A stretch of DNA of 64,000 nt, from positions 2,285,721-2,349,720 of the forward strand of contig NZ_JALIHL010000001.1 of NCBI RefSeq assembly GCF_022869225.1. Reading direction: 5' to 3'. Source of the stretch: Chryseobacterium sp. (lineage in GTDB: Bacteria > Bacteroidota > Bacteroidia > Flavobacteriales > Weeksellaceae). The position numbers and the translations under genes are program-made. This document shows positions 19,130-23,995 of the stretch, one piece after another (position 1 is the stretch's first letter; every line of letters begins with the position of its first letter). Below the pieces are notes generated by a model. The model was not told where the DNA came from. It did no database searches and saw only the letters and a program-made list of their open reading frames with translations.

Positions 19130-19975
19130 TTAACTAAATATTTTTTGAGAAAATTCTGCGGTGATGCTTTCCGTCTGGTTGATCTGAGCAGCTCCCATAG
19201 CCGCTAATGCAATAGCGGTCTGCTTGTCAAGTGTTTTTCTGATGATATTGCCGTTGGTAGCGCGCAATATTTTACAGAAGTGATAAGTGAAATACCCTCG
19301 TATCTGCCCGCTGATACTTCCTTCCATAGATACCTGATTGTCTTTGGCTGCAGCCCATAAAGTATGATTCATTCCGGCAACAGGAATAAGAGCCTTAGTG
19401 AGGGCCGTTGTTTTTTTAGCATTTTTAGAAGATTCTATTTCACTGGCATAGGTCAGATAAAATTCATCCTCGAGCATTGGGGGAATAAAACGGGCGGTTT
19501 CATTAAGGAGGTCCGCTTCCAGTCCCAGGTCCATTTTTCTGGTTCCTGTTCCGGAATAACAGCAGTCGAAGATGACTTCCATATTGACTCCGGCTTTTAG
19601 CTTACTAAGAACCGCTTTAAAATCATCATCCCGAATGACACCGGCACTTGCGTAATCATGCGGACAAATGGCTTCGTCCAGACCGTCCAGTTCAAGATCT
19701 GACCCGATATTGGCCACTCTGGTTCCGTGTCCTGAATAATAAAAAACAAGAGAATCTCCATTTACACTTGTGCTGATCAGAGATTTCAGATAGTTCAGTA
19801 TATTGGCTCTTGTGGCATTTTGATTGGTCAGGATTTTAATCTTTGCCGGACTAAAACCACAGATCACCAATGTATTTGCCATATCTCTTGCGTCATTTAC
19901 ACAACCATTGAGGTCTGGTCCTCCGTATCCGATGGGTGCATAATCATTGATTCCTACGATAAGTGCTTTTTTCAT
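19130..19975 (-). CDS. Caspase-family (C14, metacaspase-like) protease
   Basis: Probable start MKKALIVGINDY at 19975; LNGCVNDA, catalytic His YYSGHG, DEAICPHD, IRDDDF, catalytic Cys FDCCYSG. Confidence 0.92.
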   Translation of the reverse strand: MKKALIVGINDYAPIGYGGPDLNGCVNDARDMANTLVICGFSPAKIKILTNQNATRANILNYLKSLISTSVNGDSLVFYYSGHGTRVANIGSDLELDGLDEAICPHDYASAGVIRDDDFKAVLSKLKAGVNMEVIFDCCYSGTGTRKMDLGLEADLLNETARFIPPMLEDEFYLTYASEIESSKNAKKTTALTKALIPVAGMNHTLWAAAKDNQVSMEGSISGQIRGYFTYHFCKILRATNGNIIRKTLDKQTAIALAAMGAAQINQTESITAEFSQKIFS

Positions 19976-20150
19976 TGTATTAGTTTTTAAAATAATCCCT
20001 ACTCTGTTTCGGCTTTTCGGGTTCGGCCTTCCTGTATTTTTTCTATGACAAAATTCCGTCATTCTAAAGGACGAAAACAGAGGAGAAAACCGTATTTTGA
20101 AAAAGGAAAAACACTTTTTTAATTGTATATGAGAATGTTATGAAATAAAA

Positions 20151-20245: not shown

Positions 20246-20890
20246 TCAACATAGATCGTGTTTTAAGGCAAAGAGTACCAGACCTGCCCTGTTTTTTATA
20301 TCCAGTTTTACAAAAACAGAGTCTCTATAGCCGTCTATTGTTTTGGGGCTAAGGCACATCCTATCGGCAATTTCCTTATAAGTAAGTTCACTGCATGCCC
20401 ACTTTATAAACTCTTTCTCTCTGTCTTTCAGCTCTGAAAGAAGGGATGCATTTTTTATTTCTTCCGTTTTTACTTTTAATAATTTCTGAGCCACAAAATC
20501 AGTATAAAAACTCCCTTTTTCAAATACGGTGTCTATGGCCTGAAAGAGGATAGAAGGCTGCATGTCTTTCAGCAAATATCCTTTAGCTCCCGCTTTTAGC
20601 ATTCTGATGAGAACTTTTTCATCATCATCCATTGTCAGTGCAATGACTTTGATGTCGGGATAATGCTCGGTAAGCCACTCTGTAGTTTCTATACCATTTT
20701 TATAAGGCATATTAACATCCATCAGTACTACGGCCGGTAATTCGGAAGCTTTTTCTATACCGGCAATGAAATCTTCTCCATTAGGATGATTCATAATTAC
20801 CCTATATTGAGTGTTTTCTGCAATCATATTCTCCAATGCTTTGGAGATTAACGTATGATCATCGACAATGGCTATGGGAATGGTTTTCAT
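20246..20890 (-). CDS. NarL/LuxR-family response regulator
   Basis: IVDDH, LMDVNMP, GYLLK, C-terminal HTH LTYKEIADRMCLSPKTIDGYR. Confidence 0.95.
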   Translation of the reverse strand: MKTIPIAIVDDHTLISKALENMIAENTQYRVIMNHPNGEDFIAGIEKASELPAVVLMDVNMPYKNGIETTEWLTEHYPDIKVIALTMDDDEKVLIRMLKAGAKGYLLKDMQPSILFQAIDTVFEKGSFYTDFVAQKLLKVKTEEIKNASLLSELKDREKEFIKWACSELTYKEIADRMCLSPKTIDGYRDSVFVKLDIKNRAGLVLFALKHDLC

Positions 20891-21669
20891 AATAAATTTT
20901 TGTGATAGGTTATCAAAGTTTGTGTTCCTTTATTCAATTCTGACTGTATAGACAGCTCTGCATGAATCAGTTTGGCTCTCAGTTCCATATTTTTCAATCC
21001 TGAACCGTCCTGAATACTGCTGGTATCAAAGCCTTTTCCGTTGTCAGAAATACTGATGTGCAGCATTTCACAGTTATCTTCCATTTGTATGGATACATTT
21101 TTGGCTTTGGAATGTTTCAGGATGTTGTTGATGCTTTCCTGGACGATTCTGAAAAGGATCAGACCGTGTTTAGGGGAAATATCAATATCCTGCTTCTGGG
21201 TGATGAATTCTATTTTTAATAATTTCAATTTTTTTATCCTATGAACTTCTCTTTCTATGGAGTCCGCCAGTCCGAAATGAATGATCTGTTCAGTGATCAG
21301 CGTTTTGGACAGGTTTCTTATGTCCTGTATGCATTCGCCCAATAATTCATTCAGCTCATTCAATTCTTCTTTTTCTGCATTTTTTAACTTGGTGATAAGC
21401 TGGTTTTGCCGTAACCGGACAACAGAAAGCTTTTGTCCCAGATCGTCATGTAATTCCTGCCCGATATAATTGAGTGTCTGCTCCTTCATTTCTACTTGCG
21501 ATGTGGCCAGTTCCTTTTCAAACCGCAAATCTTTTTCTTTTTGCGCGATCAGCAGCGTTGTTTTTTTCTTGATGAAAACCACATAAATGAAGATCATTGT
21601 CAAAACAACGATGAATAAAGTAACTGTAAAGATGATGACCAAATTATTCTCTTCCATATCTAGAAGCAT
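20887..21669 (-). CDS. HisKA_3-type histidine kinase with a single TM and no sensor domain
   Basis: One N-terminal TM, coiled coil, ELHDDLGQ, QESINNILKH, DNGKGF, GSGLKNM; likely start 21657. Confidence 0.93.
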   Translation of the reverse strand: MLLDMEENNLVIIFTVTLFIVVLTMIFIYVVFIKKKTTLLIAQKEKDLRFEKELATSQVEMKEQTLNYIGQELHDDLGQKLSVVRLRQNQLITKLKNAEKEELNELNELLGECIQDIRNLSKTLITEQIIHFGLADSIEREVHRIKKLKLLKIEFITQKQDIDISPKHGLILFRIVQESINNILKHSKAKNVSIQMEDNCEMLHISISDNGKGFDTSSIQDGSGLKNMELRAKLIHAELSIQSELNKGTQTLITYHKNLL

Positions 21670-22314
21670 TTATATGATTCTGTCCTGTTTGTTCCAAATT
21701 AAACCTAGTATGAGTATACTGTTGCTGGTCAGATTCAACATAAATAAAATCAGGAAATAAATACTCTCCGAAACAGTAGCTCTGAAAAAGAGAATGGGAA
21801 TACTTCCAATAAATAAGATCAGTAAAGCCACTGAAATCCAGAACGGCAGATAATTGTTAATTTCCAATATCTTATCCGAATTAAAGGTTTGATACAGGAA
21901 CAAAATAATTGAAAATAACAACAGGAGGATATCTACATAAAGCATGTTAAAAGAAAAATGATGGAGCAGGTGATCTTCTGTGTAAAACATTACAGCAATA
22001 TTGAGGACAAAAAGAACCAGGATGCCGGCCTGGATCTTTTTGAGCAGAGGAACATACAATAATTGGTAATAATAAAGTAAATACAAAAAAAATACAATCA
22101 TTAAAAAGCCAATTACATAAAATAGGTCCGTAGGCTGGCTCGTCAGCTTGTAATAGAAATAACAAAAAATATCAATCAGGGAGAACAGCAGATATCCTAT
22201 GATAAAAAATAAATTCTCCTTTCCGGTTTTTCTATATTTTATAATCATTAAAATCATCACGACAATGGACAGGATCATAGATATCTGTTTCCCTATTTCA
22301 ATATTCCAGTTCAT
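21670..22314 (-). CDS. Seven-TM membrane protein, putative accessory sensor
   Basis: Seven hydrophobic segments incl. FWISVALLILFIGSIP; abuts the kinase ORF. Confidence 0.75.
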   Translation of the reverse strand: MNWNIEIGKQISMILSIVVMILMIIKYRKTGKENLFFIIGYLLFSLIDIFCYFYYKLTSQPTDLFYVIGFLMIVFFLYLLYYYQLLYVPLLKKIQAGILVLFVLNIAVMFYTEDHLLHHFSFNMLYVDILLLLFSIILFLYQTFNSDKILEINNYLPFWISVALLILFIGSIPILFFRATVSESIYFLILFMLNLTSNSILILGLIWNKQDRII

Positions 22315-22325
22315 AGTGCTGTTTT

Positions 22326-22868
22326 TTATGGCATCGATACTGACGACGCTTTTGGCGGAGGTGCCAGATTGGTCATGTTCATAGATTCTATAGAAGATAC
22401 ATCTGTATTTTCCTCTGAAGTGTCCGTTCTGGACATTGCATTGTCTTTTTTTCTTTTTTGTGAAGTGGGAACTAAAAATATCGTTTGATAGCCTGCATAT
22501 TCAGGTTTTGCCATTCTGTTTTTAGGATGGTTCATTGGATATTTTCCCATGTAGATCCGGATTCCTACCTTTTTTAATTTCTGTTTTTTGGCATTTTCTT
22601 TTACATATTTGATATATCCTTCCATCTCTTCCAGAGAAAACCAATACCATCGTGAATCCGGTTCACCGTTCCGGTATTTAGTGAGAATCACGTTATTGGT
22701 TCTGGAATATTCATCAAAAAGGACCCGCCCTTCGCGGTAGCTGATCAGTTTCTTTTTATAACTGTCATTCACGGGTTCGGAGCAGCGAGTACAGCTTAGC
22801 AAACAAAAAGCCAGAATAAGAGCTGCACAAAGCAGACTTAAGGTTTGAGTTAAAAAGGAAGTTTTCAT
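22326..22868 (-). CDS. Hypothetical lipoprotein heading the signalling operon
   Basis: Lipobox LLSC; motifs WFSLEEMEGYI, GIRIYMGKY, TIFLVPT, C-terminal NMTNLAPPP. Confidence 0.75.
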   Translation of the reverse strand: MKTSFLTQTLSLLCAALILAFCLLSCTRCSEPVNDSYKKKLISYREGRVLFDEYSRTNNVILTKYRNGEPDSRWYWFSLEEMEGYIKYVKENAKKQKLKKVGIRIYMGKYPMNHPKNRMAKPEYAGYQTIFLVPTSQKRKKDNAMSRTDTSEENTDVSSIESMNMTNLAPPPKASSVSMP

Positions 22869-22894: not shown

Positions 22895-22902
22895 CAAAAT
22901 TA
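22895..22902 (-). promoter_or_regulatory. -7 promoter element of the lipoprotein-7TM-HK-RR operon
   Basis: TAATTTTG on the minus strand matches TAnnTTTG. Confidence 0.6.
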
Positions 22903-23120
22903 GCTAATGGGTCAACTATAAAAAAGGGTGAAAACACTGTTTTTTATCCTTTACTAAATGTACGACTTTTTGATATTCAGATGGATATGAATCATCATGT
23001 TTGTTTTCCTTTTCAAAAAATTATTCCAATTGTACCCCTCGAAATAAAAAAATCTGTGTCTCTGTTTATTCATAAGGTCTCCCGACATTGAGTCTGAAAT
23101 AAAATTCAAAAACAAGAAGC

Positions 23121-23995
23121 ATGAAAATCACAATAGTGGGCTATAAAAAAGAGGAAAGACTCTCGCAGGGAGTGGCCAATGATGAAGATACGGAACTGAT
23201 CAGTTTTTTAATAAACAAAGGCTTAGACATCGTTCCAACAATCTGGAATGATAAAAATGTTGATTGGAGCAGTTTCGATGTCGCTGTTATCAAATCTCCC
23301 TGGGATTATTACAACCATTTAAATGAATTTCTGAACTGGCTGGGCAGCCTTGAAAAACAGGGGGTCAAAGTTCTGAATCCTGTTGAGGTGATCAAATGGA
23401 ACAGTGATAAACATTATCTGAAAGATATTGCAGATAAGGTCTTCCGGTAATTCCCGCTGAATACCTTGAAAAAGGTTCCGGATTTGACAATCATTTCTTT
23501 GATTATTTCAATACCGGGAAACTGGTAGTAAAGCCTTGTGTAAGTGCAGGAGCACAAAATACAGTCGCTGTTGGCAGAGATGATTTCAACGAACGTTCTG
23601 TAGAAATTGAAAACCTCCTGAAAGTGCAGGATTATATGGTGCAGCCTTTTGTAGAAGAAATCAAAAATGGAGAATGGTCATTTATCTTTTTTAATGGAAA
23701 ATACAGCCATTGTTCGTTAAAAACACCTAAACAGGGAGACTTCCGGGTGCAGCATTACCATGGCGGAAGCATCAGCTATCCAACGCCAGATTCCAAACAT
23801 ATAGAACAGGCCGGAACCTATCTGAAAAGTTTACCCCAGCCAACGCTGTATGCAAGAGTGGATGGTGTGCTCATTAATAATTTATTTAGTTTAATGGAGC
23901 TGGAACTGATAGAGCCTTATTTGTTCCTGGATGGAAACCGTGATTTCCTTGGAAATTACTATCAGGCTTTGATGGGTTTAATGGTTGATTTGTAG
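23121..23995 (+). pseudogene. ATP-grasp (RimK/glutathione-synthetase-like) protein, frameshifted
   Basis: KSPWDY and WNSDKHYL in ORF 23121; VKP..SAGA, YMVQPF, YARVDG, MELELIEP downstream. One added base at gataaggtctt (23436-23439) restores DKGLPVIPAEYL. Confidence 0.82.

Follow-up and report, generated by a model that had tools for sequence, protein, structure and literature searches.

A 64,000-nt stretch of the 4.88-Mb chromosome of a Chryseobacterium species (hereafter the window) carries four adjacent genes, all on the minus strand and spanning positions 22868 to 20246, which encode a small predicted lipoprotein, here called X, a seven-transmembrane (7TM) protein, a histidine kinase and a response regulator. 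The module is an accessory-protein two-component system in which two of the components, X and the 7TM protein, belong to undescribed families. We lean towards a reading in which signalling depends on these accessory proteins: the 7TM protein would control the kinase, X would modulate the 7TM protein, and the regulator would act at a conserved promoter motif. The four-gene arrangement is far beyond chance, as its synteny, the C-terminal tail of X and the co-occurrence of kinase and 7TM protein hold in about 98 distinct genomes. No paper on an X–7TM–kinase–regulator module was found in the literature. The Riemerella anatipestifer system RAYM_RS09735/09740 was considered as a match and rejected, being a different, PhoR/OmpR-type pair.

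Four genes in one operon

The module comprises the following features, the genes being open reading frame (ORF) calls.

22326–22868, minus strand: X, 180 aa, predicted lipoprotein
21670–22314, minus strand: 7TM protein, 214 aa
20887–21669, minus strand: kinase, 260 aa
20246–20890, minus strand: regulator, 214 aa
20151–20177, minus strand: intrinsic terminator from a terminator scan, a 12-bp stem with 7 G-C pairs followed by a T run, ending the four-gene operon

From X to the regulator, the genes are spaced by 11 nt, 0 nt and a 4-nt overlap, in which the regulator start lies over the kinase stop. With such tight gaps and a single strong terminator after the regulator, the four genes are, on sequence grounds, one operon. 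The terminator stem is kept in five of six aligned Chryseobacterium species and differs in the most divergent one. An earlier note, made from the letters of this stretch, had described this layout with the same spacing, a one-helix kinase, a 7TM protein and a tail-bearing lipoprotein, and the ORFs, hydropathy and lipobox confirm it.

The kinase ATG follows directly on the TAA stop of the 7TM gene, in the same reading frame. Orthologous kinases in other Chryseobacterium start at a methionine equivalent to codon 5, so the true gap between the two genes may be 12 nt. Read-through, or a broken fusion of the two genes, was considered given the shared frame with only a TAA between them, and was rejected: every homologue has the 7TM protein as a chain of its own, about 215 aa long, other loci show the two genes overlapping or at a different spacing, and the topology puts the 7TM C-terminus inside and the kinase N-terminus outside. 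A search of RNA runs found the window locus in none of them; three runs with the C. indologenes orthologue were low-depth contigs with even coverage throughout.

The kinase has no input domain of its own

The kinase consists of HisKA_3 (PF07730, 2.7e-8, residues 69–124) and HATPase_c (PF02518, 2.7e-9) domains and nothing else, with the conserved histidine, His74, in the sequence ELHDD. By hydropathy, a single hydrophobic segment at residues 10–33 forms the only transmembrane (TM) helix, preceded by at most 9 residues and joined to HisKA_3 by a juxtamembrane helix of about 35 aa. PAS, HAMP and GAF domains gave no match in the kinase. The input must therefore come from elsewhere, and the earlier note's proposal to that effect is borne out. 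This architecture is typical of the module: the kinases as called measure 234–273 aa in 45 of 45 examined and carry one N-terminal TM helix in 42, the other three having been N-terminally shortened by ATG-only start calling. The best NCBIfam matches (MctS, UhpB, NarQ/X and LiaS) cover the core only and fall far below their cut-offs.

The regulator is of the NarL/LuxR type, with a receiver domain (PF00072, 2.3e-24) and a GerE helix-turn-helix domain (PF00196, 8.7e-10). Having His-bearing dimerisation and catalytic domains on one side and an adjacent receiver–GerE gene on the other, the two proteins make up a HisKA_3 kinase and NarL-type regulator pair. The intramembrane-sensing histidine kinases, in the definition of Mascher, share with this kinase a minimal extracytoplasmic part and the lack of a cytoplasmic input domain, but have two TM helices and a short extracellular linker where this kinase has one TM helix; the class fits in spirit, though its definition asks for two TM helices.

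Conservation of the 7TM protein peaks towards the cytoplasm

Hydropathy resolves seven hydrophobic segments in the 7TM protein. Across 54 family members, lysine and arginine residues number 8.7 in loops 1, 3 and 5 plus the C-terminus against 3.3 in the N-terminus plus loops 2, 4 and 6, a bias that predicts an N-out/C-in topology. Conservation peaks at the end of TM5, in cytoplasmic loop 5 and in TM6 (E-x-F-N-S-D-x-I-L ... P-F-W ... G..P), and also in TM7, while the least conserved parts are the periplasmic loops. Within the membrane, polar residues are conserved in TM2 (D/E) and TM7 (N); conserved His, Cys or Ser residues of a catalytic type were not found.

Pfam and NCBIfam returned no match to the 7TM protein, either alone or as the 54 members, nor did a sequence profile search of the PDB. 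The family is small, with 82 representatives at 50% identity among 1.8 billion proteins, and throughout these the protein stands alone at about 205–230 aa. The earlier note had taken it for a receptor split off from its kinase, an origin that finds no support in the family: none of the 82 representatives is a fused 7TM–kinase relative, and similarity to 7TMR-DISM_7TM (PF07695) amounted to one of 54 members at E 0.61. Identity with 7TMR-DISM was rejected, since hhalign gave probabilities of 0.6% and 0.1%, below 1%, against two such modules. YhhN/TMEM86, the UniRef label of some orthologues, was likewise rejected in the absence of a profile match; the 54 members scanned matched 27 families at E ≤1, and YhhN was absent from the 25 that were listed.

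Conservation and co-inheritance of the module

Within the family Weeksellaceae, the 7TM protein occurs in 46 of 201 genomes and 19 of 49 genera. The gene order 7TM–kinase–regulator holds in all of the best 30 family loci, with X upstream in 28, and in all of 80 named loci (Chryseobacterium, Kaistella, Bergeyella and Amniculibacterium), with X in 76; Marnyiella was named separately among the X homologues. Synteny, which the earlier note had proposed as a check, is thus well kept. A kinase orthologue of at least 46% identity is found in 43 of the 201 genomes. All 43 also have a 7TM orthologue, and the two genes are adjacent wherever coordinates were compared.

The module extends beyond the family. 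A profile of the 7TM family finds members in 98 of 401 Flavobacteriales genomes, covering 28 of 105 genera and at least four families. Other families gave 19 usable loci, and in 15 of these the 7TM gene has a relative of X before it and a one-TM kinase of about 260 aa after it, joined in 14 by the regulator. The window genome itself holds four further modules of this kind, at 2881091–2884788, 2725478–2728511, 1196680–1199512 and 703921–706668. The first of these, listed also as C1:2878542–2884788, includes an extra 7TM copy, and two genes for M43 lipoprotein metalloproteases come after the module. This module thus also adjoins proteases.

Several observations bear on X and the 7TM protein as a pair. 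In Kaistella soli (L022/L093), compared with L010 and L012, the operon is a mosaic in which X and the 7TM protein are of one type and the kinase of another: X is 50% and the 7TM protein 72–74% identical to the lipoprotein-type allele of one Kaistella group, and the kinase is closer to the signal-less group (67–71% vs 50%). This suggests recombination inside the operon. In three of four loci that lack X, 7TM divergence exceeds what would be predicted from the kinase, a weak effect with a mean residual of −2.7 identity points from non-independent pairs. The remaining four of the 19 order-level loci (L066, L068, L072 and L074, all Flavobacteriaceae) have a lipoprotein-type X and one 7TM gene, or two in tandem, with no kinase or regulator adjacent. 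Taken together, the mosaic, the kinase-less pairs and the divergence in X-less loci make X and the 7TM protein seem, at the sequence level, to belong together and to be co-inherited.

The kinase-less loci imply that the pair may have its own function. In L072, the only one of these loci whose neighbours were read, the pair sits in a housekeeping position between rpsT/proS and rho. One could thus picture X and the 7TM protein as a functional unit, for instance a membrane enzyme or transporter-like protein with its partner, that the two-component system monitors or regulates as BceS does BceAB, and the conserved polar residues inside the 7TM membrane segments would suit such a role. We nevertheless regard it as quite improbable, because the 7TM protein resembles no transporter or enzyme family in Pfam or the PDB, has no conserved His, Cys or Ser of a catalytic type, and is coupled perfectly to the sensor-less kinase within the orthologous group.

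X and its conserved tail

The N-terminal hydrophobic segment of X ends in L-L-S-C26 and reads as a lipobox (MKTSFLTQTLSLLCAALILAFCLLS-C26). A cysteine occupies the same signal boundary in 13 of 13 signal-bearing orthologues, and UniRef labels X orthologues 'Lipoprotein'. In Chryseobacterium, X is therefore a predicted periplasmic lipoprotein. The signal segment is followed by an α/β domain of about 100 aa, a linker that is charged and variable in length and composition, and a conserved C-terminal tail.

Like the 7TM protein, X had no match in Pfam or NCBIfam, alone or as 21 family members, and none in the PDB by sequence profile search. An alignment-based AlphaFold2 model reached a predicted local distance difference test score (pLDDT) of 80.8 and a predicted template modelling score (pTM) of 0.72, and a single-sequence model was poor (pLDDT 48.8); Foldseek with the X model against the PDB gave nothing below E 0.39. 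Public names for homologues of X and the 7TM protein in UniRef are 'hypothetical protein', 'Lipoprotein' and, rarely, 'YhhN-like'. By these searches, both proteins belong to no described family.

22353–22379, minus strand: X tail N-M-T-N-L-A-P-P-P, residues 164–172

The tail always retains its two prolines, P170 and P171 being invariant in 21 of 21 diverse orthologues. About 60 Chryseobacterium species carry NMTNL(A/S)PPP with hardly any change, the one variant being NMMNLSPPP, and the flanking residues vary on both sides. Weeksellaceae tails share the pattern hydrophobic-N/D-hydrophobic-x-x-hydrophobic-x-P-P, Flavobacteriaceae tails read L-N-x-G-x-x-G-x-P-P, and the tails of more distant modules, the paralogues in the window genome among them, read MDFxxPCPxxC. 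The earlier note had named an unconserved tail and lost synteny as observations that would count against its reading; with tail and gene order both conserved, neither was made.

In the alignment-based model, residues 151–170 have pLDDT values of 77–89 and form short strands at 154–156 and 162–164. Such confidence suggests that the tail region is probably part of the X fold, not hanging free, and the model is consistent with the tail docking onto its own domain.

X does not always carry a signal peptide. In the family sample, 15 of 28 orthologues lack one and have an in-frame stop a few codons upstream of the start; signal-less forms also make up three of the four paralogous copies in the window genome and about half of the relatives in other families. 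Judging from trees built for X, 7TM protein and kinase, the signal state changed at least 2–6 times, and both forms occur within Kaistella. In a census of the named loci (L082–L161), a cysteine directly precedes the two prolines in 7 of 13 signal-less tails and in 0 of 63 lipoprotein forms, a split that would be expected if the two forms differ in compartment. For the Cys-PP and PCPxxC tails, a redox or metal role in the cytoplasm is conceivable. A strange remainder is that X keeps its invariant tail while changing membrane sides.

These results bear directly on the central claim of the earlier note, that exported X, or a peptide cleaved from its C-terminus, is the ligand of a 7TM receptor in a quorum-like system. 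A lipoprotein-type signal in Chryseobacterium, a near-invariant tail on a variable charged linker and the co-inheritance of X with the 7TM protein would all suit a ligand. Against these stand the signal-less forms with their upstream stops, the absence of X from six loci, and the distribution of the Cys-PP tails, which is what one expects of two compartments. The confidently modelled strands at 151–170 suggest a folded region where a free peptide was proposed, the operon holds no AgrB-like or other processing or export gene, and the periplasmic loops that would meet a ligand are the least conserved parts of the 7TM protein. Pheromones diversify, whereas this tail is conserved across genera and is not split into specificity groups among species. 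A secreted-pheromone reading fails because the tail is independent of the signal peptide and invariant family-wide, unlike a specificity-determining pheromone. We thus give the ligand model hardly any credence, and X is very unlikely to be a secreted quorum signal.

A bolder idea, and in our judgement an unlikely one, is that X and the 7TM protein form a new modular input device, in which the tail on its flexible linker would serve as a tethered ligand or plug and moves of X between compartments would re-aim the receptor to the outside or the inside. If true, this device and the multiple paralogous modules would amount to a major, undescribed sensory system of the Flavobacteriales.

A promoter motif and a candidate output

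Upstream of X, and again downstream of the operon next to a pair of protease genes, lie the following features.

22921–22937, minus strand: promoter motif GTGTTTTCACCCTTTTT, upstream of X, an imperfect GGGTGwTTTCACsC palindrome-like element
22895–22902, minus strand: −7 box TAATTTTG, matching TAnnTTTG, 26 nt upstream of the X start codon
20100–20114, minus strand: second, weaker motif copy GTGTTTTTCCTTTTT, between the operon terminator and the caspase-like gene
19996–20030, minus strand: DUF805b RNA motif (Rfam RF02914, 42.9 bits), directly upstream of the caspase-like gene
19130–19975, minus strand: caspase-like C14 peptidase (Pfam)
19081–19116, minus strand: second DUF805b RNA motif (Rfam RF02914, 48.1 bits), directly upstream of the trypsin-like gene
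18046–19056, minus strand: trypsin-like peptidase (Pfam)

TAnnTTTG is the −7 promoter consensus of the Bacteroidetes. The box lies 23 nt after the CACCC core of the motif, and the core-to-box distance is 22–23 nt here and in other genera. Both motif copies and the −7 box are kept in six Chryseobacterium species. The pattern GTGTTTT-N1-3-CCTTTTT occurs twice in the 4.9-Mb genome, both times at the window locus, and 0–1 times in shuffles; because it was derived from those two sites, only its absence elsewhere is informative.

Upstream of X, the motif was found in no genus but Chryseobacterium. Of 15 other Weeksellaceae genera, about 13 have it directly after the regulator stop codon, in the form GGGTG(A/T)TTT(C/T)(A/C)C(C/G)C, an imperfect GGGTGA-TT-TCACCC palindrome. 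There, motif and −7 box are followed by a tiny unit, ACACAAATGATGAAAAA with a hairpin terminator, of an estimated 60–70 nt or so, that lacks a conserved ORF and matches nothing in Rfam. Judged by its sequence, this unit is a candidate for a small RNA or leader, and could be the ancestral target of the system. The loci with such a unit are L036 and L039–L050, directly downstream of the regulator (for example L041, 10062–10190), some with two or three motif copies. The motif is a good candidate for the regulator site because it travels with the system across genera at a fixed promoter position, which is how we infer that the two are linked.

A motif in the operon promoter that is a candidate regulator site implies auto-induction of X and the 7TM protein, and invites comparison with a feedback brake of the SaePQ or LiaF kind, in which X and the 7TM protein would have no part in perceiving the stimulus but, once induced, would push the kinase into a phosphatase state and so reset signalling, while the kinase senses a membrane property through its own TM helix, as DesK does. 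Some lineages do without X, just as activation in the Sae system does not need SaeP and SaeQ (PMC5083920), and conservation of the 7TM protein is highest towards the cytoplasm, where SaeQ too is thought to act on SaeS. Even so, the 7TM protein is never missing beside the kinase clade (43 of 43), which is stricter than expected of a mere brake; the motif was found upstream of X in Chryseobacterium only; and one TM helix with about 5–9 external residues makes a minimal sensor. We consider a brake rather doubtful.

The second motif copy is a candidate link from the regulator to the protease pair, judged by sequence and position. The caspase-like and trypsin-like genes are adjacent to the module in five of five Chryseobacterium loci and in none of 15 other genera. 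An orthologue of the trypsin-like gene is present in 24 of 81 Chryseobacterium genomes, and all 24 are among the 30 that have X (Fisher p 2.6e-15, not corrected for phylogeny). From these distributions the protease link is real but genus-specific, and the pair (18046–20030) is a probable regulated target in Chryseobacterium only. The earlier note had set the system upstream of the protease pair; this stands for Chryseobacterium, where co-occurrence is complete (24 of 24) and the promoter motif is shared, and falls away beyond the genus. Each protease gene has its own structured DUF805b leader, both scoring above the RF02914 gathering score of 35.6 bits. Anti-phage defence was rejected as a role: a PADLOC scan of the four genes gave nothing beyond a marginal match of a CARF model to the regulator (E 4e-4), and the caspase gene received a generic caspase match only. 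Outside Chryseobacterium, the neighbours read from the sequence are a YggS-like protein, a sigma-54-type regulator, a MATE transporter, a sirtuin and GpmI; these housekeeping neighbours were not counted in as parts of the system.

A working model of the module

In the accessory-protein model, the 7TM protein would be an obligate membrane partner that switches the kinase through its TM and juxtamembrane helices, probably acting with TM5–TM7 and cytoplasmic loop 5, where the 7TM protein is best conserved. X would be a non-essential co-factor that modulates the 7TM protein, in Chryseobacterium from the periplasmic side, and its tail would most likely be part of the fold or a docking element, not a released peptide. 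The phosphorylated NarL-type regulator would bind the GGGTGwTTTCACsC-like element upstream of the −7 box, so that the operon would be autoregulated, and in Chryseobacterium it would also control the adjacent caspase-like and trypsin-like genes. The stimulus may be a membrane- or envelope-associated cue, a guess by analogy with other sensor-less kinases.

We favour this model because the kinase lacks an input domain while 7TM adjacency is invariant (30/30 and 80/80) and co-occurrence complete (43/43), and because the same architecture recurs in 15 of 19 loci from other families and in four more modules of the genome. It further draws on the conservation of the 7TM protein, which peaks in loop 5 and TM6 and is lowest in the periplasmic loops; on the joint inheritance of X and the 7TM protein, the tight gaps and the one terminator after the regulator; and on a motif found only twice in the genome, conserved and at a fixed spacing from the −7 box, next to a protease pair that occurs only with the module. 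Several points weigh against it. The contact between 7TM protein and kinase, and the action of the regulator at the motif, are steps that we infer; in several genera the motif, placed directly after the regulator gene, might serve as a weak hairpin too. X–7TM pairs lack an adjacent kinase in four of 19 order-level loci, and if X met the 7TM protein at one fixed surface, its switching between a lipoprotein and a cytoplasmic form would be difficult to explain.

Comparison with known systems

The closest known systems function alike but are not relatives. SaePQRS of Staphylococcus aureus combines, in one operon, the lipoprotein SaeP, the polytopic SaeQ, the kinase SaeS without an extracytoplasmic sensor domain, and a regulator (PMC5083920). 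SaeP and SaeQ form a complex with SaeS and are encoded upstream, under an auto-induced promoter (PMC5083920). In the window genome the organisation is similar, with a lipoprotein and a polytopic membrane protein upstream of the kinase in one operon; because X is signal-less in 15 of 28 orthologues, this likeness is not universal in the family, and the small protein is cytoplasmic in many lineages. The systems differ in that SaeQ has four TM helices against seven here, SaeS two against one, and SaeS an OmpR-type regulator where the module pairs a HisKA_3 kinase with a NarL-type regulator; the Sae gene order is P-Q-R-S. No sequence relation to SaePQRS was detected in Pfam scans of X and the 7TM protein, in which the SaeP and SaeQ sequences themselves were not compared directly.

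LiaFSR and VraTSR, which respond to cell-envelope stress in the Firmicutes, share with the module a HisKA_3 minimal-sensor kinase, a NarL-type regulator and a membrane accessory protein encoded directly upstream, and LiaS is among the NCBIfam models that match the kinase core, at 4e-15. Unlike in LiaFSR, neither X nor the 7TM protein has a LiaF-type domain (no Pfam or NCBIfam match), and the accessory consists of a 7TM protein and X; LiaS has two TM helices and a HAMP domain and comes from another phylum. In UhpABC of Escherichia coli, a separate polytopic sensor, UhpC, acts on a HisKA_3 kinase, UhpB, paired with the NarL-family regulator UhpA, and the UhpB model matches the kinase core at 9.8e-28. 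UhpC is a 12-TM protein of the major facilitator superfamily and UhpB has its own multi-TM domain, whereas the 7TM partner here is unrelated to UhpC and the kinase crosses the membrane once.

Seven-TM input joined to HisKA_3 also occurs in the 7TMR-DISM receptor kinases of other Flavobacteriales, such as a 607-aa protein in L081. In these, unlike in the module, a single chain carries an extracellular DISMED2 domain, then the 7TM part, then the kinase; PF07695 is absent from the window genome. Agr peptide quorum sensing resembles the module in outward arrangement only, a kinase–regulator pair beside a small protein and a polytopic one. Its small protein, AgrD, is a precursor peptide of about 46 aa, AgrB a peptidase, AgrC a kinase with its own sensor of 6–7 TM helices and AgrA a LytTR regulator. 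The module has none of these features by Pfam; X is modelled as a folded 180-aa protein and the regulator is GerE-type.

To our knowledge, sensor-less kinases fed by accessory proteins, well studied in the Firmicutes (Lia, Bce, Sae and Vra), are hardly known in Bacteroidota. Here, two proteins without a Pfam, NCBIfam or PDB relative are the companions of a class of one-TM HisKA_3 kinases across the Flavobacteriales, with five modules in the window genome. Defining the input from X and the 7TM protein would make many 'hypothetical' signalling genes of environmental, fish-associated and bird-associated flavobacteria accessible to study, and the repeated switching of X across the membrane makes the working of such accessory proteins a puzzle. 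For Chryseobacterium, the module offers a handle on the control of an intracellular caspase-like and trypsin-like pair, each gene placed after an orphan DUF805b RNA.

Neighbouring features in the window

Two ORFs beyond the module, at 23121–23450 and 23624–23995 on the plus strand, both match one 289-aa ORF of another Chryseobacterium (L032, 9451–10320). The gene divergent from the operon therefore appears to be split, through a frameshift, a pseudogene or a sequencing error. On the far side of the protease pair, 17207–17889 on the minus strand holds resolvase/invertase fragments, with the N-terminal segment MTVGYARVS...IIMVYKTD tandemly duplicated in one ORF and followed by a separate C-terminal piece. 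The sequence is that of a serine recombinase in decay, and it borders a stretch of low GC content (0.30).

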